Shown: one piece after another, positions 3,839 to 63,557 of the stretch | Layout of the letters: the number at the start of each line of letters is the position of its first letter | How positions within the stretch are numbered: the first letter of the stretch is position 1 | Source of the DNA: Candidatus Komeilibacteria bacterium | Lineage (GTDB): Bacteria > Patescibacteriota > Patescibacteriia > UBA1558 | Reading direction: 5' to 3' | Length of the DNA: 64,000 nt | NCBI GenBank assembly: GCA_048538235.1 | Contig: JBLYPX010000001.1 | Span: 264,013-328,012, forward strand | Translations under genes and position numbers: made by a program | Notes under the pieces: generated by a model | The model's database searches: none | The model's input: the letters and a program-made list of their open reading frames with translations, nothing else | Told to the model about the DNA's origin: nothing

Positions 3839-6375
3839 TGAACCCAATTGAAGTACCAGAGAGTCAATATAATGTGGAAGTAGATACAAACTATTTCTTG
3901 TTTTTAATTATAGCTTTAGTAGTTCTAGCTATACTTTGGATTATTTTTAAACAAGTAATTAAATATATTAGAAAAAATAATAAATTCCCAGAGGAATGGC
4001 GACCAGTCGTTCTTTCTTTATCTGTACCTAAGATAAAAACAGAAGGAGAAGAAACAATACAAAAGAACCACGAAGCTATATCTATGGCAGAGAACTTGTT
4101 TTCTACCTTGGGTGGTTTAGAGGCGCAGCGTGGATTTAAAGCCTGGCTTTACGGTAGAACAGATGTCTTTTCTATGGAAATGGTTGCCAATAAAGGAATG
4201 ATTGAATTCTATTTAGCAGTACCACAGATTAATAAAGATTTTGTTGTTCAGCAATTACATGCAATCTATCCACATATTAATATAGATGTAATAGAGGACT
4301 ATAATATTTTTCAACCACAGAGTCATGTAGTGGCTGCGGCTTTAAAGTTTTCACGTGAATTCATTTTTCCAATAAAAACATATACAAAGTTAGAGAATGA
4401 TCCATTGAATATTATTACTACATCACTTGGTAAGATTGATGAAACAGAAGGTGCAGCAGTACAGCTTGTTATGCGTTCTGCATATAAGAAGTGGCACTAT
4501 ATGGGTAATAAAGTAGCTTCTACCATGCAGCAGGGTAAAAGTTTAGAAGAAGCTTTAGCATCTGTTGGTATGGGATCTAAATCCGGTAAGATTTTTAATT
4601 TTATTTTTAAATTAATAAAGGCAGCTAGTAATTCAGCTACTAGTGATGGTATGAACACTCCTCCTGTTAGACAAATATCTCCAATGGAACAGGAGCTTAT
4701 TAAAAATATTGAAGAAAAGTCAGCTAAGGCTGGGCTAGATGTTAATTTAAGAGTTATTGTTTCTGCAAATTCAGAACAGGTTGCAAATGCCAAGCTAAAT
4801 GACATGCTTAATTCTTTTGGACAGTTTAGTATGTTCCAACAAGGAAATAGTTTTAAGATTTGGCAACCAAAGAAACAAGTTAAGAGAGATAAAATAGTCC
4901 ATGACTATATTTACCGTAACTTTGATGAGAAGTATAAAATGATAATGAATACAGAAGAGGCGGTTTCATTGTGGCACATGCCATTACCAAATAATGCTAC
5001 GCCTAATATTCGTTGGCTTGGTGCTAAGAAAGCTGCTCCACCAGTTAACTTGCCAACTGAGGGTGTTATTTTAGGTAAGAGCGAGTATAGGGGGATAACA
5101 AGACAAATTAGATTAAAACGTGCAGATAGAAGACGTCATGTATATATTATTGGACAAACTGGTGTGGGTAAGTCTACTGTTATGAAGAATATGATGATAC
5201 AGGATATGCAGAATGGTGAGGGTTGTTGTGTTATTGATCCTCATGGAGATTTTGCAATGGACATGTTAAAAAATGTTCCTAAGGAAAGAGCTGAAGATGT
5301 AATCTACTTTAACCCAACAGATACAGAAAGACCATTAGCTCTTAATATGCTTGAGTATAATAGTCCGGAGCAAAAAACATTTGTTGTGAATGAGCTTTTG
5401 TCTATCTTTGACAAACTTTATGATTTAAAGGCTACTGGCGGTCCTATGTTTGAGCAATATATGCGTAATGCATTATTACTTATCATGGATGACCCAGAAT
5501 CTGGCATGACTTTGATGGAAATACCACGTGTGCTTGCAGATGAAGATTTTAGAGCATTAAAATTAAGTAAGTGTAAAAACCAGAGTGTTAAGGATTTTTG
5601 GGAGAAAGAAGCACAAAAGGCTGGTGGTGAAGCATCACTTGCTAATATGGTTCCATATATTACTAGTAAATTAACACCATTTATTGCTAATGATCTTATG
5701 AGACCTATTATTGCTCAACAAAAGAGTAGTATAGATTTTAGACAAGTAATGGATAATAACAAAATATTAATTGTTAATCTTACCAAAGGTAAATTAGGAG
5801 ACATTAATTCATCATTACTTGGTATGATTATTGTGGGTAAGATTTTACTTGCGTCTTTATCTAGAGTAGATATGGATGAAGACAAGAGAAAAGATTTCTA
5901 TCTTTACATTGATGAGTTCCAAAACTTTACAACAGATAGTATTGCTGTAATTTTATCTGAAGCTAGAAAGTATAAATTGAACTTAGTAATAGCTCATCAA
6001 TATATTGGTCAGCTGGTTAAGAATAATGACACAGCTATTCGTGATGCTGTCTTTGGTAATGTTGGCACAACTATTGCTTACAGGGTTGGCGTAGATGATG
6101 CAGAGATTTTAGCTAAGCAATTTGCTCCTGTATTTAATGAATATGATGTGGTTAATGTTCCAAAATATACAGCTTATGCAAAGATTTTAATAGATAATGC
6201 TAATCCACCAGCATTTAATATTTCTTTTGACAGAGAGCCAGAGGGTAAAAAAGAAATGGCAGATGCTGTTATTGAGCTATCTAGATTAAGATATGGTAGG
6301 GCAAAAGAAGAGATTGAAGCAGAAATTAAGCAAAGAGCTTCAGCAGCTGTAAATGTTTTGAAAAAAGAAGAGTAG
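3838..6375 (+). CDS. membrane-anchored P-loop ATPase, TraD/VirD4/HerA(DUF87)-like
   Basis: N-terminal TM helix; Walker A 'GQTGVGKST'; 'VIDPHGDF' block; Walker B 'LYIDEFQNF'. 845 aa. Confidence 0.7.
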   Translation: MNPIEVPESQYNVEVDTNYFLFLIIALVVLAILWIIFKQVIKYIRKNNKFPEEWRPVVLSLSVPKIKTEGEETIQKNHEAISMAENLFSTLGGLEAQRGFKAWLYGRTDVFSMEMVANKGMIEFYLAVPQINKDFVVQQLHAIYPHINIDVIEDYNIFQPQSHVVAAALKFSREFIFPIKTYTKLENDPLNIITTSLGKIDETEGAAVQLVMRSAYKKWHYMGNKVASTMQQGKSLEEALASVGMGSKSGKIFNFIFKLIKAASNSATSDGMNTPPVRQISPMEQELIKNIEEKSAKAGLDVNLRVIVSANSEQVANAKLNDMLNSFGQFSMFQQGNSFKIWQPKKQVKRDKIVHDYIYRNFDEKYKMIMNTEEAVSLWHMPLPNNATPNIRWLGAKKAAPPVNLPTEGVILGKSEYRGITRQIRLKRADRRRHVYIIGQTGVGKSTVMKNMMIQDMQNGEGCCVIDPHGDFAMDMLKNVPKERAEDVIYFNPTDTERPLALNMLEYNSPEQKTFVVNELLSIFDKLYDLKATGGPMFEQYMRNALLLIMDDPESGMTLMEIPRVLADEDFRALKLSKCKNQSVKDFWEKEAQKAGGEASLANMVPYITSKLTPFIANDLMRPIIAQQKSSIDFRQVMDNNKILIVNLTKGKLGDINSSLLGMIIVGKILLASLSRVDMDEDKRKDFYLYIDEFQNFTTDSIAVILSEARKYKLNLVIAHQYIGQLVKNNDTAIRDAVFGNVGTTIAYRVGVDDAEILAKQFAPVFNEYDVVNVPKYTAYAKILIDNANPPAFNISFDREPEGKKEMADAVIELSRLRYGRAKEEIEAEIKQRASAAVNVLKKEE

Positions 6376-57517: not shown

Positions 57518-60061
57518 ATGGTTAGAAAAGCAAAAAAAGAAGATAAAAAAAATAAACTAGATCTAAATTTAGAGCATTTTAGTATTGGTGATGAAGAGAT
57601 AGCCGCTGAGCTATCTGCCAGTGCCAAGAAAAAGGTACTTGCTAGTTATGAACTTGATCGTCTGATTGAACAATCTGATGATGCTTTTTTTGTTAACCAT
57701 CGTAAGAAACTAATCTTTACTCATTCTCCGCATTTATTAAATTTACAGGATAAGAAATTAAAAAAGAAGGAACAGGAAGAAGTAGTACCGCTAGAGGTTA
57801 AAAGTAAAAAACCTATACTTGATTCAATGAAGCCTGTTAATCTTCTTGTTAAAATGCAAAGATTGGCAGCTTGGCAAAGACCAAAGTTTTCATTTGAATT
57901 TCCAAATATATATAGATTATCTGTTATACAGATTATATATAGTGTATATAGATTATTCATACTACTACTTGTAGCTATTAAATATTCGTTTAAGCAAAGT
58001 GGTAAAGCTGTTGTTAAATCTGCTCAGGGAATAGGTAGGGGAGTTAAACATAGTAGGAATGCTTTTACAGATTCAATGATACTTAAATATAGTCGTAGCT
58101 TACTTGTGTTTATAATAGTAGCCGTAATGTTAATGCTACCTTACTTTGGTTTTGGTTTATACAGTAATGCGAAAACTGTTCAAGGTAGGGTAATGGGAGT
58201 TAGTCAGGAAGCAGCTCGTACTTGGCAAATGGGACTAGACAATATGATGCAGGGTAATTGGACAGAAGCTGAAACTAATTTTAATGAAGCTTCAATAAAC
58301 TTTGCTAATGCTCAAAGCATGCTTAGATCATATACTGAAGCATTAGATAAAGTTCCAGATTGGTTATCACTAGATAGTACTGAGGTTGGAACTGGTTTAA
58401 ACCTTGTTGAAATTGGAGCAGTTATGTCAGAGGTAAGTTTGAAATTGAATACAATAGCAGCTTTAAGTAATAAAGAAGGAATGTCACTATCTGATAAACT
58501 AATAGTGTTATCTGTTAATTTAAATGAGATATATGATTTATACTCAACAGTGGCAGTTAAAGTTAACAAGATTAACTTAAAGGTTATACCCGAAGAATAT
58601 AGATCAATTTTTGCTATTTGGCAGTCTCAAAGTAATGAACTATATAGTTATTTAGGTGAGGTTACAGATAATATTAATTGGATCCTATCCTTAACCGGAA
58701 CTTTAGAACCAAAAAGGTATTTACTTGTATTTCAAAATAGTAATGAGTTAAGAGCAACGGGTGGTTTTATGGGTAGTTTTGCACTTCTAGATATGGCAAA
58801 AGGTGAGATTCAAGATTTAAGTATACCTGGCGGCGGATTATATGATTTAGAATCTCAAGTAAGAGAAATGGTAGTAGCACCATACCCACATCAATTACTG
58901 GGTGCACGTTGGCAGATATGGGATGCAAACTGGTGGTCAGATTGGCCAACTACAGCGCGTAAGATAGCTTGGTTTTATGAGAGCGCCAATGGTCCAAGTG
59001 TTGATGGTGTGATAGCTATTAATAGTCAATTAATAATTGATCTGGTTGGATATTTTGAACCAATTGTAATGCCTGAATATGATAAAGAATTAACAAGCTC
59101 TAATGTGGTAACAGCCCTGCAACATGCTGTTGAATTTGAATATGATAAAACAGAGAATAAGCCAAAACAAATCTTAGCTGACCTTGCCCCAATTTTAATA
59201 GACGATATTTATAGTTTGCCACCGATTGAATTATTTGGTGTAGCTTCAATGCTTTATGATCATTTGGATAGGAGCGATATCCAGATTTATCTTTTTGATG
59301 AAGAGATGCAGTCTACTGTAGAAAATAAATCATGGTCTGGTAAAGTACCAGATATAACAGGGGATTATCTTCAGGTTGTAGTACATAATATTGGCGGAGG
59401 TAAATCAGACGAAGCTATTAAACAAACAGTAGATTATGATTTAGTTGTTGGACCAGATAATTACTTGATCGGTAAAGCTACAATCAAACGTGAACATCAA
59501 GGTGATATTAATGATGTATTTACTGGTCATAGAAATGTATCATTTATCCGCGTACTTGTTCCAAAGGGAAGTGAGCTTATTGCTGTAGAAGGAGCAATTG
59601 AACCAGACGAGAAATTATTTAAAGAAGTTCCAGATTACTTAGAAGCAGATAAGGATTTAATACAACTTGATGGAATAAATTATTATAATAAATTTAATAA
59701 ATATTATTCTGCAACCCAATTTAATAAACAAGTATTTGGTCAGTGGTTAATGGTAGATCCTGGTGAAGCAAAGGAGATTACTTTTATTTATAGATTACCA
59801 TTTAAAATAGACAAGGATGAACAAAAATCTAAAATAGCATCATGGCTTCTACCAGAACAATATAAATTAAACTATACATTCTATTATGATAAACAATCTG
59901 GAATGGATAACCAGACATTTAAGTTTAATTTTGTTATACCTAAAGCACTAGATAGTAAGTGGTTTTCAGATAGTTTAAATTCTATGTATAAAATAGGGAA
60001 GACACTATCTACAGAAGCTATAATTAATGAAGATTACCAACTAGGGTTTATTTTAAGGTAG
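57518..60061 (+). CDS. large membrane-anchored envelope protein, DUF4012-like
   Basis: Hallmark block 'YLLVFQNSNELRATGGFMGSFALLD'. TM near residues 190-215. 847 aa. Confidence 0.6.
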   Translation: MVRKAKKEDKKNKLDLNLEHFSIGDEEIAAELSASAKKKVLASYELDRLIEQSDDAFFVNHRKKLIFTHSPHLLNLQDKKLKKKEQEEVVPLEVKSKKPILDSMKPVNLLVKMQRLAAWQRPKFSFEFPNIYRLSVIQIIYSVYRLFILLLVAIKYSFKQSGKAVVKSAQGIGRGVKHSRNAFTDSMILKYSRSLLVFIIVAVMLMLPYFGFGLYSNAKTVQGRVMGVSQEAARTWQMGLDNMMQGNWTEAETNFNEASINFANAQSMLRSYTEALDKVPDWLSLDSTEVGTGLNLVEIGAVMSEVSLKLNTIAALSNKEGMSLSDKLIVLSVNLNEIYDLYSTVAVKVNKINLKVIPEEYRSIFAIWQSQSNELYSYLGEVTDNINWILSLTGTLEPKRYLLVFQNSNELRATGGFMGSFALLDMAKGEIQDLSIPGGGLYDLESQVREMVVAPYPHQLLGARWQIWDANWWSDWPTTARKIAWFYESANGPSVDGVIAINSQLIIDLVGYFEPIVMPEYDKELTSSNVVTALQHAVEFEYDKTENKPKQILADLAPILIDDIYSLPPIELFGVASMLYDHLDRSDIQIYLFDEEMQSTVENKSWSGKVPDITGDYLQVVVHNIGGGKSDEAIKQTVDYDLVVGPDNYLIGKATIKREHQGDINDVFTGHRNVSFIRVLVPKGSELIAVEGAIEPDEKLFKEVPDYLEADKDLIQLDGINYYNKFNKYYSATQFNKQVFGQWLMVDPGEAKEITFIYRLPFKIDKDEQKSKIASWLLPEQYKLNYTFYYDKQSGMDNQTFKFNFVIPKALDSKWFSDSLNSMYKIGKTLSTEAIINEDYQLGFILR

Positions 60062-60131
60062 TGGATATTATAGAAAAACCATTAAAATAGCTAATCTTAG
60101 CTATTTTTTTATTAATAAGGGGATAAATGAC

Positions 60132-60160
60132 TTGACAAATATATAAATATGGTGTATAGT
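60132..60160 (+). promoter_or_regulatory. near-consensus sigma70 promoter
   Basis: TTGACA, 17-nt spacer, TATAGT. Confidence 0.6.
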
Positions 60161-60166
60161 ACTATA

Positions 60167-60285
60167 TTAAACGATATTTACATCTAAATAACATATCCTT
60201 GGAGAGAGGGATAATATACAAAACATAAACAGATTTATTTATGAAAAGCAACTGTCAGAACCTCTCTCCAGTTGCTTTTCTTTTG
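60167..60285 (+). ncRNA. candidate structured sRNA or attenuator with mutually exclusive helices
   Basis: Terminator AAAGCAACTG (60245-60254) / CAGTTGCTTT (60269-60278) plus a T-run. Alternative helix TGGAGAGAGG (60200-60209) / CCTCTCTCCA (60261-60270). A 25-codon mini-ORF (ATG 60241) spans the terminator. Confidence 0.4.
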
Positions 60286-60506
60286 CCAAAATTAGTTGTT
60301 TTAAGAGGGGAGAGTTAATCTAGGTACTATCTCGCATAATTATCTAGATCGTGGAGATATGTTTAAGTAAATTCTGGTCTGACTAGAAATTACCTATTAC
60401 TATCTTCTTTGTCTAAGAGGCTTCGGCCATAACTTAGACCTAACTCTCTTGCCTTAAGATAGTTAATAATAACTATTAGAACCTTAAACTGAATTGGAGA
60501 GAAATC

Positions 60507-60728
60507 ATGAATATGAACAAGGCAGCTTGGAGTTGCATAATGATCGTTATTGGTCTCGTGGTAATTGACGGAAGTTTTGGTCAGTACGTAACTGAACTGT
60601 TCGGTCAATCGATTGGCCAATTGATTCGTCTTGCTCTCGTTGGAATTATGGGAATATCTTGCTGGTTTCTGTTCAGAAACTATTCAAAATTTCTCAAAGA
60701 CCAACCAAAACCCTTCCCGAAGAATTAA
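60507..60728 (+). CDS. small two-TM peptide P1 (73 aa)
   Basis: SD GGAGAG plus 5 nt before the ATG. Two hydrophobic helices and a basic C-terminus. A 9-bp hairpin overlaps the stop. Confidence 0.55.
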   Translation: MNMNKAAWSCIMIVIGLVVIDGSFGQYVTELFGQSIGQLIRLALVGIMGISCWFLFRNYSKFLKDQPKPFPKN

Positions 60729-60737
60729 CTTCGGGAA
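60714..60737 (+). other. stem-loop without U-tract (TTCCCGAAG-aattaa-CTTCGGGAA)
   Basis: Perfect 9-bp hairpin overlapping the P1 stop, immediately followed by the 51-bp repeat. Confidence 0.7.
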
Positions 60738-60740
60738 CCT

Positions 60741-60791
60741 CCCAAGTCTAGTACTTAGGTAATAGATTTAGGAAGTAATTTGTACATTGAA
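60741..60791 (+). repeat. 51-bp direct repeat, copy 1 (leader of P2)
   Basis: Identical to 61080-61130: cccaagtctagtacttaggtaatagatttaggaagtaatttgtacattgaa. Confidence 0.9.
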
Positions 60792-60812
60792 CGTAAATAG
60801 AAAGGATTTGTT

Positions 60813-61037
60813 ATGAAAACAAATTTGCAAGTAGCACTTGTTGGCTGCATAGCAGTAATTATCGGCTGTGTTATTGCCACAGTTAATGGTATCAAGTATT
60901 TGGAGGATAGTTCCTGGAAAATGCCATCAGGTGATGCAGGTGTTGTCACGATAGCAATGTTGTTGGGATTGATCATGATCTTCTATGGAATATTTAAACA
61001 GCTTCGTGAGGAGAATAAAACTCACGACATTAACTAG
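60813..61037 (+). CDS. small two-TM peptide P2 (74 aa)
   Basis: SD AAAGGA 8 nt before the ATG; start about 21 nt after the repeat. Two TM helices and a charged C-terminus. Confidence 0.55.
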   Translation: MKTNLQVALVGCIAVIIGCVIATVNGIKYLEDSSWKMPSGDAGVVTIAMLLGLIMIFYGIFKQLREENKTHDIN

Positions 61038-61048
61038 TTCCTGTTCTT

Positions 61049-61075
61049 CCCAGAAACAGATAATCGTATTCTGGG
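61049..61075 (+). other. stem-loop without U-tract (CCCAGAA...TTCTGGG)
   Basis: 7-bp stem with 13-nt loop, directly followed by repeat copy 2. Confidence 0.6.
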
Positions 61076-61079
61076 ACTC

Positions 61080-61130
61080 CCCAAGTCTAGTACTTAGGTA
61101 ATAGATTTAGGAAGTAATTTGTACATTGAA
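61080..61130 (+). repeat. 51-bp direct repeat, copy 2 (leader of P3)
   Basis: Identical to 60741-60791. Confidence 0.9.
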
Positions 61131-61150
61131 TTTAAATATAAGAGGTAAGA

Positions 61151-61315
61151 GATGAAACGTTTAATGATTTTTTTGATGATTTTGGCAATTGGTGCTCTGT
61201 ATGTCGGTTATGACCATTTAATGGGTCAGTTAACGAAAGAAATGCTTTTCATTGATGTTTTAGCAAGCTTGATTGCTGCGACAGTAATATCTCTTACCGC
61301 AAAGGTAGAAAAGTA
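61151..61315 (+). CDS. small two-TM peptide P3 (54 aa; below the ORF-track cutoff)
   Basis: ATG 61151 preceded by AAGAGG. Translates to MKRLMIFLMILAIGALYVGYDHLMGQLTKEMLFIDVLASLIAATVISLTAKVEK. A 9-bp hairpin (61322-61349) follows. Confidence 0.45.
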
Positions 61316-61503
61316 ATCTATCCCTAGCTGGTTATCATAACAGCTAGGGGAACATCTTAAATATATTAAATGTTTAGTATATTTAAAATGTTTTTTGAAA
61401 ATAGATGTAGACTTTGTAAATTTGGAGATTGGAGTCGGATATAATTTAAAACATATAAATATTCATATCCATCGCTCTAGTCTCCAGTTTTACAAAGTTT
61501 AAC

Positions 61504-61602
61504 TTAATTCTAATTGTAGTAGGGTTATAATAATAATGAATTCGGTATAGTCCTCGTGGCGAAAATTGAGTTTGTGCATAGCCCTATTACAATTAGAATT
61601 AA
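61504..61602 (+). repeat. 21-bp inverted repeat flanking a 57-nt loop
   Basis: Arms TTAATTCTAATTGTAGTAGGG (61504-61524) and CCCTATTACAATTAGAATTAA (61582-61602). A perfect RNA duplex with one G-U pair. MITE-like or processing hairpin. Confidence 0.8.
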
Positions 61603-61607
61603 TATAT

Positions 61608-61688
61608 GGCAGTGCAGTCTGAAAGAATGCCAGGGGCAGCCTGAATAAGGTTAGACTGTAGACGGAGGTTCGATTCCTTCCATTGCCG
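61608..61688 (+). ncRNA. tRNA-like element (T-arm plus acceptor-like stem) of uncertain identity; not a canonical tRNA
   Basis: T-arm GGAGG-TTCGATT-CCTTC (61664-61680). GGCAGTG (61608-61614) can pair with CATTGCC (61681-61687). No anticodon arm could be folded. A weak terminator follows at 61700-61728. Confidence 0.35.
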
Positions 61689-61699
61689 CAACAGCAAAT

Positions 61700-61728
61700 A
61701 AAGGAGAGAATAATTTCTCTCCTTTATC
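61700..61728 (+). terminator. terminator-like hairpin after the tRNA-like element
   Basis: AAAGGAGAG-aataattt-CTCTCCTTT followed by TTTATC. Confidence 0.55.
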
Positions 61729-61732
61729 TACC

Positions 61733-61761
61733 TTGACAGTAATTTGAAATATTATAAAATT
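61733..61761 (+). promoter_or_regulatory. sigma70-like promoter of the murJ leader
   Basis: TTGACA then A/T-rich -10 region (TATTATAAAAT). Confidence 0.45.
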
Positions 61762-61787
61762 ACAGTGGTAATAAAGTATTTGTTGCC

Positions 61788-61905
61788 AAAAAGCTGTGCC
61801 CTTATTGAAGGCTGAATTATAGTTTTTTTACCCACATAACTGTGCGGTAACTCTCTCCTAAAAGAAGACTATAACTCATGCAATCCTCTCAGTGGGGCAC
61901 AGCTT
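61788..61905 (+). promoter_or_regulatory. structured 5' leader of murJ with a 14-bp long-range helix ending in a U-tract (attenuator or riboswitch candidate)
   Basis: AAAAAGCTGTGCCC (61788-61801) pairs with GGGCACAGCTTTTT (61885-61898), enclosing about 83 nt, then TTTTTGTTTTATTT. About 60 nt further on is the murJ ATG. Confidence 0.4.
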
Positions 61906-61964
61906 TTTGTTTTATTTAAGTATCTAGACAAATACCTTAAAATAGCGTATAATTCTATCGTTTT

Positions 61965-63557
61965 ATGTTTAATAAAATTTGGAACAAATTAATAACAACA
62001 GTTACCGGTGGGGCAGTTTTGATTGCCTTTTTTTCTATTCTTGCAAAATTGGTTGGTTTATTAAGAGATAGAATATTAGCAAGTACATTTGGTGCTGGTA
62101 GAACTTTGGATATATATTATGCTAGTTTTCGTTTGCCAGACTTTATTTTTAACACTTTGGTGCTTGGTGCATTAGCTGCCGCTTTTATTCCAGTCTTTAT
62201 TAGACTATGGGATATAGATAAGAATAAGGCTTATGAACTAGTCAATATTGTTATAACTAAACTAGTTATTATTTTAAGTTTATTAGCTGTCATTGCAATA
62301 ATTTTTGCACCATCAATTGTTGGTGTGCTTGCACCTGGTTTTGATCTTGCTAGTCAACAACAAACAGTTACCTTAACTAGAATAATGCTGATTAGTATTA
62401 TTTTCTTTGGTATTAGTAATGTGTTTTCTGGAACATTAAATGCTTGGAGAGATTTTGTACCATATGCGATTGCTCCAATATTCTATAATGTTGGAATTAT
62501 AGTTGGTGTTTTATTGCTATACCCAAGCTTTGGTTTAAAAGGATTAGCTAGTGGTGTTGTTTTGGGATCTATATTACATCTTTTAACTCAATATCCATCA
62601 GTACGTAAGCATGGTTGGAAGTACGGGTTTACAGTTAAAAATACAGTTGAGACAACTAGAATGTTTTGGTTGATGCTTCCTAGGACAATTGGTCTAGCTG
62701 CTAACCAAATAAACCAAGTGGTTATTACTTCTATTGCTTCAACTTTAACAATTGGTAGTATTGCTGTATTTAATTTAGCTTCTAATTTACAAAGTTTTCC
62801 AATTTCAATATTTGGTCTATCCTTTGCTATTGCAGCCTTTCCAGTTATGTCCAGAGCTTGTACAAGTGAAAACAAACAAGACTTTAGAGGTAGTTTTTCT
62901 ATAACCTTCAGAAGAATACTTTTTTTCATAATTCCAATTTCTGTTTTAATCTTAGTGCTGCGTGCTCAGATTGTTCGTGTGGTATTAGGAGCTGGTGTTT
63001 TTGATTGGGAAGATACATATTTTACAGCTCAGATACTAGGTGTCTTTTCTATCTCTTTATTTGCTCAAGGAACAATACCGTTACTAGCTAGAGCTTTCTA
63101 TGCCTTTGAAAACACTGTAATACCAGTTGCAATTGGTATTGTGAGTGTAATTATTAATATTGTTTTGTCTATATATTTATCTCCTTCAATGGGGATTATT
63201 GGTTTAGGTGTAGCTTTTACAGTAGCTAATATTGTAAATATGTTAGCTCTACTTATTGTGTTAAGAGAAAGAGTTGGAGATCTGGATGATAAAACAATAA
63301 TTAAATCTGTATTTAAGATAAGTATTAATTCTATCCTAGCTGGTCTTACAACCTATGGACTATTAAACTTAATAGCGCCAGCTGTAAATATGCAAAGCTT
63401 TTTAGGTATATTTATTCAAGCATTACTAGCAGGAATTGGTGGTATGATTGTTTACTTCCTACTTTCTGCTTTTACAAATATGTCAGAGATGAAAGTTATT
63501 ACAGATTTTGTTAGGTCATATATTAAACCTTTATTAAAGAGAAATGGATCAGTCTAA
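61965..63557 (+). CDS. murJ: lipid II flippase MurJ (MviN)
   Basis: 14-TM protein; N-terminal '[20 protein letters not shown]...[13 protein letters not shown]' MurJ signature. Confidence 0.9.

Follow-up and report, generated by a model that had tools for sequence, protein, structure and literature searches.

The stretch of DNA analysed here, called the window throughout, comprises 64,000 nucleotides (nt) of a Candidatus Komeilibacteria genome (contig JBLYPX010000001.1, positions 264,013 to 328,012 of the forward strand). It is densely coding except for a gap of 1.9 kb (60062-61964) that contains no long open reading frame (ORF). The gap is flanked by a gene for a DUF4012 protein (57518-60061) and by murJ (61965-63557), and an HtrA-like gene and lepA are further neighbours of the locus. 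An earlier note, made from the sequence of the window, had described in this gap a promoter-driven structured RNA followed by small peptide genes. A comparison with related genomes revealed that this locus is the front part of a larger transcription unit, which is specific for a genus-level clade of the Komeilibacteria. The unit consists, in this order, of a promoter, a leader RNA (A), a second structured RNA (B), a hypervariable slot for small genes, two long hairpins (E1 and E2), a tRNA-like element (T) and a terminator, and each gene cassette in the slot ends in one or two hairpins. The unit is followed by a separate gene for a small RNA (D). It is rather probable that this clade-specific structured-RNA transcription unit is gated by an attenuator and doubles as a recombination-prone slot for small envelope proteins.

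Related loci were collected by several routes. L001, whose MurJ is 89% identical at the amino acid level, came from one genome scan with MurJ. A MurJ homologue search yielded a graded series with 57-89% identity, from which L007-L014, L020 and L021 were obtained via contig look-ups. L015-L018 were found in a metagenome scan using a pattern derived from the most conserved RNA, and L019 was reached through the single homologue of P1, the first peptide gene of the window. The gap was present in eleven related loci (L001, L007, L008, L011-L017 and L019; MurJ 65-89% identical), and the order DUF4012 gene, gap, murJ was kept in all loci with a MurJ identity of at least 65% that reach far enough upstream. 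At 57% MurJ identity D was the sole detectable element of the gap. In L002-L005 (41-44%) there was no gap, and protein genes directly abut murJ on the upstream side.

BLAST searches of window segments against the gaps, together with nhmmer profiles, detected A with its promoter, B, E1, E2, T, the unit terminator and D in a single copy per locus. The same searches revealed no counterparts of the peptide genes P1-P3 in the gaps of the relatives, except for the P1 homologue in L019. A and B together were 88.5% identical between the window and L001 and 97.2% identical between L001 and L015, while the respective values for the murJ DNA were 80.9% and 93.2%. When A, B, E1, E2 and D of the window and of five relatives were compared with Rfam 15 (4227 models), no match was obtained, even at E-value limits of 1-5. 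None of the models tried, which included riboswitches, 6S RNA, transfer-messenger RNA (tmRNA), RNase P, SRP and GOLLD/ROOL/OLE, matched one of these five RNAs at its gathering threshold, and the output for the window and the relatives consisted of real tRNAs, the element T and sub-threshold matches, e.g., to microRNA models. Neither the remainder of the window nor the other fetched loci contained paralogues of the peptides or RNAs, and literature searches for structured RNAs or variable small proteins of the Candidate Phyla Radiation (CPR) or the Komeilibacteria gave no relevant results.

The front part of the unit contains the following features:

60132-60160, + strand: sigma-70-type promoter TTGACA-17-TATAGT
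60166-60290, + strand: leader RNA A, predicted attenuator (fold, covariation, switching folds)
60200-60209, + strand: GA box TGGAGAGAGG, on a small local hairpin at about 60193-60214
60241-60318, + strand: 25-codon mini-ORF, judged not functional
60244-60254 / 60269-60279, + strand: terminator AAAAGCAACTG/CAGTTGCTTTT, with a U-run to 60284
60261-60270, + strand: CU box CCTCTCTCCA, on the 3' side of the terminator loop
60291-60468, + strand: RNA B, about 170 nt, four-way junction

The near-consensus promoter that had been proposed was verified: it matches the consensus in 11 of 12 positions, and each of the ten relatives whose sequence includes this site has kept both boxes, -35 and -10. A hairpin (AAAATAGCTAATCTTAGCTATTTTTTT) is located at 60085-60110, behind the stop codon of the DUF4012 gene; it is kept in L001 and partly in other relatives. 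This hairpin is probably the terminator of the DUF4012 gene, and therefore the promoter at 60132 is likely to begin an independent unit.

The earlier note had also proposed that the leader can fold either into a terminator or into a competing helix. This arrangement could be confirmed, as both helices covary across six sequence lineages. When the first 130 nt were folded, the terminator was obtained as the structure of minimum free energy (-25.1 kcal/mol, z -3.35), and the competing helix between the GA box and the CU box, TGGAGAGAGG/CCTCTCTCCA, has -20.6 kcal/mol; the GA box and the terminator are separated by an A/C-rich linker. In nine loci with six sequence variants the terminator was kept with a stem of 11-14 bp and -17.5 to -24.7 kcal/mol, plus UUUUCUUUU, and its stem showed compensatory variants (GCAACTG/CAGTTGC, GCGACTG/CAGTCGC, GCGACTA/TAGTCGC, ACGGCT/AGGTCGT and ACGATCC/GGATCGT). 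The GA:CU helix was kept in the same number of loci and variants with 8-13 bp and -13.7 to -20.6 kcal/mol. A register shift has changed the GA box of L012 to GAGGAGAGAU, and the CU box of this locus is the exact complement, AUCUCUCCUC; in L008 one G-C pair of the helix is changed to A-U, matched on both strands. The CU box always occupies the 3' part of the terminator loop, where it abuts the 3' strand, and in L014 and L016 the alternative helix spans the entire top of the terminator hairpin.

The predicted folds switched with the length of the RNA. For a nascent RNA ending at the CU box the GA:CU helix was the minimum-free-energy fold in six of six lineages, and for the complete leader the terminator together with the small hairpin holding the GA box was obtained in five of six. 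The covariation of both helices and the switch between the nascent and the full-length fold indicate an attenuator logic, and thus the interpretation as an RNA switch stands. A is predicted to be a transcription attenuator, with a clean, covariation-backed antiterminator aimed at the terminator loop. In the proposed mechanism, the GA box of the emerging RNA would pair with the CU box in the terminator loop, next to the 3' strand. The resulting helix would hinder the formation of the terminator and thereby allow read-through into B and the peptide genes. If the GA box were held elsewhere, the terminator would form and only an RNA of about 120 nt would be made. The GA box might be held by its own small hairpin, by the CU box of D, by a 30S subunit or by a GGA-binding protein.

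The mini-ORF running through the terminator, which had been pointed out before, does exist in the window, but it is not conserved: in L001 and L015 its ATG is replaced by TTG and a stop codon follows five codons later, and no ATG was seen at the aligned position in L012, L014 and L011. In L007 (4685-6000) the promoter and B are kept, and the GA box and the terminator of A are gone.

Compared with known terminator attenuators and riboswitch platforms (trp/pyr-type, T-box, PyrR/TRAP-type), A has in common the promoter-proximal terminator with U-run, an upstream helix that excludes it, and, as a third structure, a small hairpin able to sequester the antiterminator strand; the covariation shows that both helices are conserved. 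It differs in that the antiterminator strand pairs with the terminator loop and 2-3 nt of the stem instead of a stem strand, and in that there is no conserved leader peptide, known aptamer, T-box element or identified protein site. Moreover, A is followed by structured RNA and interchangeable genes and not by a fixed biosynthetic operon.

B, which the earlier note does not mention, as it does not mention the conserved RNAs behind the slot, has a closing stem of 22 bp around three hairpins, and a UUCG-capped P4. An RNAalifold analysis of ten sequences yielded 43 pairs, of which 22 exhibited compensatory changes, and 95.3% of the cells were paired. The number of doubly changed pairs was 23, versus 9.7 +/- 2.3 in shuffled alignments (reached in 0 of 500) and at most 6 in slid controls. 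According to the invariant G-U pairs, the RNA corresponds to the + strand. With nhmmer B was detected once per locus, both in the window and in twelve fetched loci. B could be a sensor, a protein-binding domain or a stabilising 5' domain.

Directly behind B a small hairpin is located (60459-60478; AUAGUUA/UAACUAU in the window), which covaries in L008 (AUAGCU/AGCUAU) and L019 (ACAGUUA/UAACUGU) and has an equivalent in L007. In L001 and L015 the last bases of the closing stem of B can instead pair downstream (AGAUAAC/GUUAUCU). The hairpin may be a second switch before the first ORF.

The separate gene D lies behind the terminator of the unit, just upstream of the murJ promoter (61925-61953):

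61733-61915, + strand: D, separate small-RNA gene with its own promoter and terminator
61733-61760, + strand: D promoter TTGACA-16-TAAAAT, conserved, 11 of 12 consensus positions
61766-61915, + strand: D RNA, a hairpin of 150 nt with 39 pairs
61849-61859, + strand: exposed CU box of D, AACUCUCUCCU, complementary to the GA box of A

D was found at full strength in the window and in thirteen fetched loci, and a weak homologue is present in L020/L021 (3709-3862), at 57% MurJ identity. The 8-mer CTCTCTCC/GGAGAGAG occurs at only three sites of the window, namely at the two boxes of A (GA and CU) and at the CU box of D. Duplexes between D and A have 8-12 bp and -13 to -22 kcal/mol, and in L012 and L014 lineage-specific, matching extensions of the complementarity were observed. 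In L007 the attenuator is missing, and the CU box of D has been lost as well, its sequence being degenerated to CUCUAUCAUU. These observations faintly suggest that D may titrate the GA box and would thereby favour termination. In L011 an ORF of 640 codons without a Pfam domain (3849-5771) lies between D and murJ, showing that the gap has a second insertion point. Purine boxes of the GGAGAG type and pyrimidine boxes of the CUCUCC type recur in A, B, the Shine-Dalgarno sequence (SD) of P1, E1, the unit terminator and D (60200-60209, 60261-60270, 60302-60316, 60441-60452 and 60496-60502, and furthermore 61424-61434, 61484-61494, 61700-61725 and 61849-61859). Possible explanations are alternative pairings, a GGA/GGAG-binding factor common to these sites, or a shared ancestry.

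As an alternative to an attenuator, A might mainly be a free, trans-acting small RNA (sRNA) of about 120 nt with the CU loop as an anti-SD seed and the GA box as a lid, while the remainder of the gap would be made by leaky read-through or separately, and the peptide genes would hitch-hike. This is unlikely, but some observations would fit well. A strong terminator lies 120 nt behind the strong promoter, the CU box is complementary to SDs of the slot such as GGAGAGA of P1, and an exposed region of D contains this motif as well. In Firmicutes, sRNAs such as RsaE/RoxS are known to have C/U-rich loop seeds. Like these, A and D are short RNAs with their own promoters and terminators, and their loops or unpaired regions carry CUCUCUCC-type motifs that are complementary to GGAG-type sequences. 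There is, however, no relationship to RsaE/RoxS in sequence or in Rfam, and the best predicted target lies in the adjacent leader, at its GA box, and not in a distant mRNA. Three further points argue against this alternative. First, no promoter was seen between the terminator and B, and B is better conserved than the neighbouring coding DNA, so that B must come from read-through. Second, the covarying GA:CU helix fits to a switch acting in cis at least equally well. Third, L007 has retained the promoter and B and has dropped the whole sRNA-like part.

Somewhat less probable still is the possibility that B provides the aptamer for an undescribed riboswitch, or acts as a protein-binding leader, which would control the translation or stability of the first slot gene, with A as an additional checkpoint. 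In its favour, B forms a compact multi-stem junction with conserved joins directly upstream of the SD of the first ORF in eight loci, the small hairpin behind it covaries (window, L008 and L019), and the 3' end of its closing stem has the alternative downstream pairing in L001 and L015. A riboswitch, however, normally tracks the function of the genes it controls, and the genes downstream of B are mutually unrelated and are absent in L014, L016 and L011. In addition, B has no match in Rfam, and the terminator is located upstream of B, so that the usual expression platform is missing.

The slot between B and E1 was compared in twelve loci and found to contain zero to three unrelated genes for small envelope proteins. 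In the window it is built as follows:

60507-60728, + strand: P1, 73 amino acids (aa), two transmembrane (TM) segments, SD GGAGAGA at 60496-60502
60714-60737, + strand: H1, 9-bp hairpin ending the P1 cassette, kept in L019
60741-60791, + strand: rep1, copy 1 of a 51-bp repeat, hairpin CCCAAGUCUA/UAGAUUUAGG plus tail
60813-61037, + strand: P2, 74 aa, two TM segments (ORF and hydropathy), NCBI ACKKL6_01745
61048-61076, + strand: H2, 8-bp hairpin ending the P2 cassette, junction TTCTGGGACT(C/T)CC common to L007
61080-61130, + strand: rep2, copy 2 of the 51-bp repeat
61152-61316, + strand: P3, 54 aa, two TM segments (ORF and hydropathy)
61322-61349, + strand: H3, pairing kept through a T/A swap in L001
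61351-61398, + strand: AU-rich hairpin S (61351-61392) plus T6, slot end, weak terminator-like site

The contents of the individual slots are:

window: P1, P2 and P3
L019: one P1-like gene
L001: one gene for a 70-aa protein with two TM segments (Q2)
L015: Q1 and Q2
L008: one gene for a 45-aa protein (R2)
L017: R1 and R2
L012: one gene for a 78-aa protein with two TM segments
L007: an ORF of 113 aa, N-terminus lipoprotein-like by eye, weak match to CarboxypepD_reg
L014, L016 and L011: empty

The three tandem genes for peptides of 73, 74 and 54 aa with two hydrophobic helices and a charged tail were corroborated by the ORFs and by hydropathy, and each has an SD. The statement that their coding sequences are unrelated holds at the DNA level, but the proteins share their architecture and a faint similarity. 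The P1 homologue in L019 (P0122) is 81% identical, occupies the same position and contains no indels; the ratio of nonsynonymous to synonymous substitution rates (dN/dS) is 0.27, which indicates that P1 is under purifying selection. For Q2 and R2 dN/dS was 0.18 and 0.44, respectively. P2 matched only itself among 5.8 billion proteins, and P3 matched only itself among 1.84 billion representatives; P2 is 31% identical to an ORF of 59 aa in the slot of L017. None of the three had a match above threshold in Pfam or any match in NCBIfam or PADLOC, and two weak matches in PHROGs (E 0.002-0.007) were to families without assigned function. The G+C content of the slot ORFs (0.35-0.38) is higher than that of the flanking non-coding DNA. 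Judged by these coding signatures, the slot genes are real. Pairs of loci that are 97% identical in A and B differ by a whole cassette (L001 versus L015 and L008 versus L017). The synonymous divergence dS of R2 is about 1 in spite of near-identical flanks (97%), and therefore an allele replacement is indicated and not a divergence in place.

The window array has the structure [P1-H1-rep][P2-H2-rep][P3-H3-S]. The earlier note had placed a perfect stem-loop without a U-tract behind each gene. Perfect stems of 8-9 bp without a U-tract of their own were indeed found, with the addition that H3 is followed by the AU-rich hairpin and T6; the region of H3 and S (61322-61398) folds with -31 kcal/mol (z -6.6). 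The hairpins after each cistron are probably 3' stabilisers or processing sites. The two copies of the repeat are identical over 51 bp, which is expected 0 times by chance, and the similarity extends to 89 nt at 84%. They had been regarded as leaders of P2 and P3. The exact identity stands, but the repeat is not the leader of the next gene. It is located directly 3' of H1 and of H2. In L019 it follows the P1-like gene and H1 and leads straight into E1 without an ORF in between, and rep-related elements close the slot in L012 and L007, where E1 or E2 follows; in L015 such an element lies between Q1 and Q2. As homologues of the repeat end the slot without a following ORF, the repeat is the 3' end of a cassette and not a 5' leader. 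That the element is under selection, as had been proposed, is supported. A role as promoter was not indicated, as no acceptable -35/-10 pair could be found by eye and a promoter scan listed none there.

A BLAST search with the repeat against the gaps of the relatives yielded a single weak match, in L015. H3 aligns with the rep family. The indel of Q1 that distinguishes L001 from L015 is flanked by similar SD-leader sequences. The window array looks as if it was assembled from slot versions that occur singly in relatives, and the two repeat copies would stem from a stacking of cassettes by recombination between such hairpins and leaders. The identity of 51 of 51 bp between the two direct repeats that flank P2 fits to a recent insertion or duplication, acquisition or gene conversion by homologous recombination.

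It had been suggested that the locus resembles a type I toxin-antitoxin or holin system, i.e., that P1-P3 are toxic peptides and that their identical 51-nt leaders are targeted by an RNA antitoxin encoded upstream, e.g., at 60386-60408. The peptides are small, hydrophobic, charged-tailed and arranged in tandem, two of the genes have an identical upstream sequence, and the peptides are strain-variable and fast-evolving, a pattern that is common among conflict genes. In tandem hydrophobic peptides, repeated flanks and structured untranslated regions the locus is also similar to type I toxin-antitoxin loci such as ldr, ibs/sib, zor/orz and hok/sok. Nevertheless, this interpretation is very unlikely. 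No match to a toxin, holin or defence family was obtained in Pfam, NCBIfam, PHROGs and PADLOC, and the locus lacks an antisense or divergent sRNA gene: promoter-like sites occurred at chance level (11 versus 10.6 expected), and those on the minus strand were weak (9 of 12 positions). The inverted fragment at about 60386-60408, which had been proposed as an antisense element, has a complementarity to the repeat of only 7-8 nt, read by eye and given here with no test against chance. It is part of the long middle hairpin of the conserved RNA B, and the repeat variant of L015, which lacks GGTAATAG, does not preserve the complementarity.

Furthermore, the repeat lies at the 3' end of cassettes and occurs without a downstream ORF in L019, L012 and L007, and the upstream RNAs persist without a peptide gene in L014, L016 and L011. 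With 54-74 aa and two TM segments the peptides are unlike typical type I toxins, which are shorter than 60 aa and have a single TM segment. Two TM segments and a charged tail are also found in holins but are not specific for them, and neither a holin family, a lysin nor a phage context could be detected. No blastn match was obtained in a phage collection, and the patterns of D and B had no match in IMG/VR.

A comparably low probability, if anything a slightly lower one, was assigned to the slot being an array for site-specific recombination, similar to integrons or dif modules, with H1, H2, H3 and rep as sites and the conserved promoter as cassette promoter. A variable number of promoterless small ORFs (0-3 cassettes in twelve loci) does lie behind a fixed promoter, each ORF ends in imperfect palindromes with common CCCWAG...CTWGGG ends, and close relatives differ by whole cassettes (L001 versus L015, L008 versus L017). 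In these respects the slot resembles integron arrays and the pdif modules of Acinetobacter. However, no integrase or recombinase was found beside the locus in any relative, and a reading of the hairpin sequences revealed neither the R/L boxes and the GTTRRRY core of attC sites nor the 11-6-11 layout of dif-like sites. The similar SD-leader sequences on both sides of the Q1 indel fit to ordinary homologous recombination, and homologous recombination among relatives can explain the turnover. As there is neither an integrase nor an attC site, an integron was rejected. That P1-P3 are not genes at all and that the whole gap is non-coding RNA is extremely improbable: P2 and P3 have no homologues and AT-rich sequence readily gives hydrophobic ORFs, but the P1 homologue keeps frame and length with a dN/dS of 0.27, Q2 and R2 are likewise under purifying selection, all ORFs have correctly spaced SDs and a G+C content above that of the flanking non-coding DNA, and the DNA of the ORFs has no counterpart in the relatives while the true RNA elements have one.

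Behind the slot, the unit continues with conserved RNA elements up to its terminator:

61408-61501, + strand: E1, conserved long hairpin, 23 pairs, 13 with compensatory changes
61504-61602, + strand: E2, conserved long hairpin, 29 pairs, 12 with compensatory changes
61608-61688, + strand: T, tRNA-like element without anticodon arm (acceptor stem, T-arm)
61698-61727, + strand: 13-bp hairpin, unit terminator, perfect inverted repeat with a compensatory A/C-T/G change in L001

In its 5' arm E2 carries a sequence resembling a promoter, TTGATT/TTAATT-16-TATAAT, with TTGATT in the window, which is kept in several relatives. T may thus also be transcribed from inside E2.

In the relatives T was located in L001 (5648-5731), L008 (1271-1353), L012 (5618-5703), L011 (3472-3555) and L010 (164-271), and it is absent in L007, L014 and L016. 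Its acceptor stem has 7 bp with a conserved G5:U68, and all seven pairs are formed in six of eight sequences. The T-arm is canonical, its stem shows compensatory changes, its loop is UUCGAUU, UUCGACU or UUCAACU, and the discriminator is G or A. The body comprises a 7-bp stem, an A-run and two mini-hairpins, with an insert of about 30-70 nt; the 5' strand of the acceptor stem precedes the 3' strand by about 60-85 nt, and the two covary locally. The Rfam tRNA model scored 24.5 bits with T of the window (cut-off 29) and 32 bits with T of L008, with an alignment that deletes the anticodon arm. ARAGORN called neither a tRNA nor a tmRNA in T, and relaxed settings did not recover the tRNA either. With a relaxed threshold and introns allowed it proposed a tRNA-Asp with an intron of 297 nt running off the segment, which was judged spurious, as the acceptor stem of T is local and covarying. 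A split tRNA with a group I intron, an idea taken from PMC13011429, was also rejected, since no intron model matched in the gap and the insert of T has only about 30-70 nt. The same was true for a tmRNA, including the permuted form, as T has C3-G70 and not G3:U70, no tag ORF and no pseudoknots, and ARAGORN and Rfam were negative.

With tRNA mimics such as the tRNA-like domain of tmRNA, the mascRNA of MALAT1 and the Bacillus cereus pseudo-tRNA "tRNA-Other", T shares an acceptor stem stacked on a T-arm, the missing anticodon arm and the position at the 3' end of a longer transcript. It is unlike tmRNA in its conserved G5:U68 instead of G3:U70 and in the lack of a tag ORF and pseudoknots, and unlike these mimics in that its body is variable, and in that T occurs as two alleles exchanged among close relatives and is absent in three relatives. 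The two T alleles are very different and cut across genome pairs (L015/L017 versus L001/L008), with flanking RNA that is 92-97% identical; the T of L015, which has two mismatches in the acceptor stem, looks like a recombinant. For recognition, RNase P, RNase Z and the CCA-adding enzyme need no more than the minihelix of acceptor stem and T-arm. As the conservation of T is confined to this minihelix, a role in processing or in the definition of the 3' end is indicated, and T is probably a signal for processing by RNase P or RNase Z.

Several points weigh against the interpretation as an attenuator-gated unit with an expression slot. A and B persist in the three loci whose slots contain no ORF (L014, L016 and L011), and thus they are not dedicated regulators of the peptides, and the function as an expression slot may be incidental. 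The alternative helix of the window type overlaps the terminator stem by just 2-3 nt, so that the mutual exclusion rests on geometry, i.e., on the lack of a linker between the two helices, and not on shared nucleotides; furthermore, the GA and CU boxes are of low complexity and pair easily. No sensor of the attenuator was identified, as the mini-ORF is not conserved and neither an Rfam aptamer nor a T-box was found. The D:A duplex of the window clade has only 8-10 bp, and cognate pairs were no better than non-cognate pairs. The promoter-like TTGATT-16-TATAAT in E2 makes it uncertain that there is one unit, and the AU-rich hairpin with T6 at 61351-61398 could end the transcript before E1. The compared loci represent about six independent lineages of one clade, and their shared ancestry inflates the shuffle statistics. 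Lastly, transcription start, termination, read-through and processing are predictions from the DNA, as are the direction of the switch, the link between D and A, the processing at T and the role of B.

Going beyond the attenuator-gated unit, it is tempting to speculate that the whole gap is a self-contained RNA circuit, in which D would set A, A would gate B and the swapped cassettes, and T, processed by RNase P, would define the 3' end. This extension is tentative and, as a whole, rather doubtful, and the same holds for the notion that such a circuit would be of a kind without prior description. If it were true, an episymbiont with a minimal genome would use about 1 kb of RNA as a platform to express and exchange surface or membrane peptides.

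A CPR genome of 860 kb devotes about 1 kb to conserved structured RNA that has no match in Rfam and is better conserved than the murJ DNA, which points to undescribed RNA functions in this large uncultured lineage. Concrete candidates for Rfam-style families are available with B, E1, E2, T and D. The slot shows that small membrane and envelope proteins, a class that is usually missed by annotation, are gained, lost and replaced between near-identical strains, and this turnover is relevant to surface variation in episymbionts.

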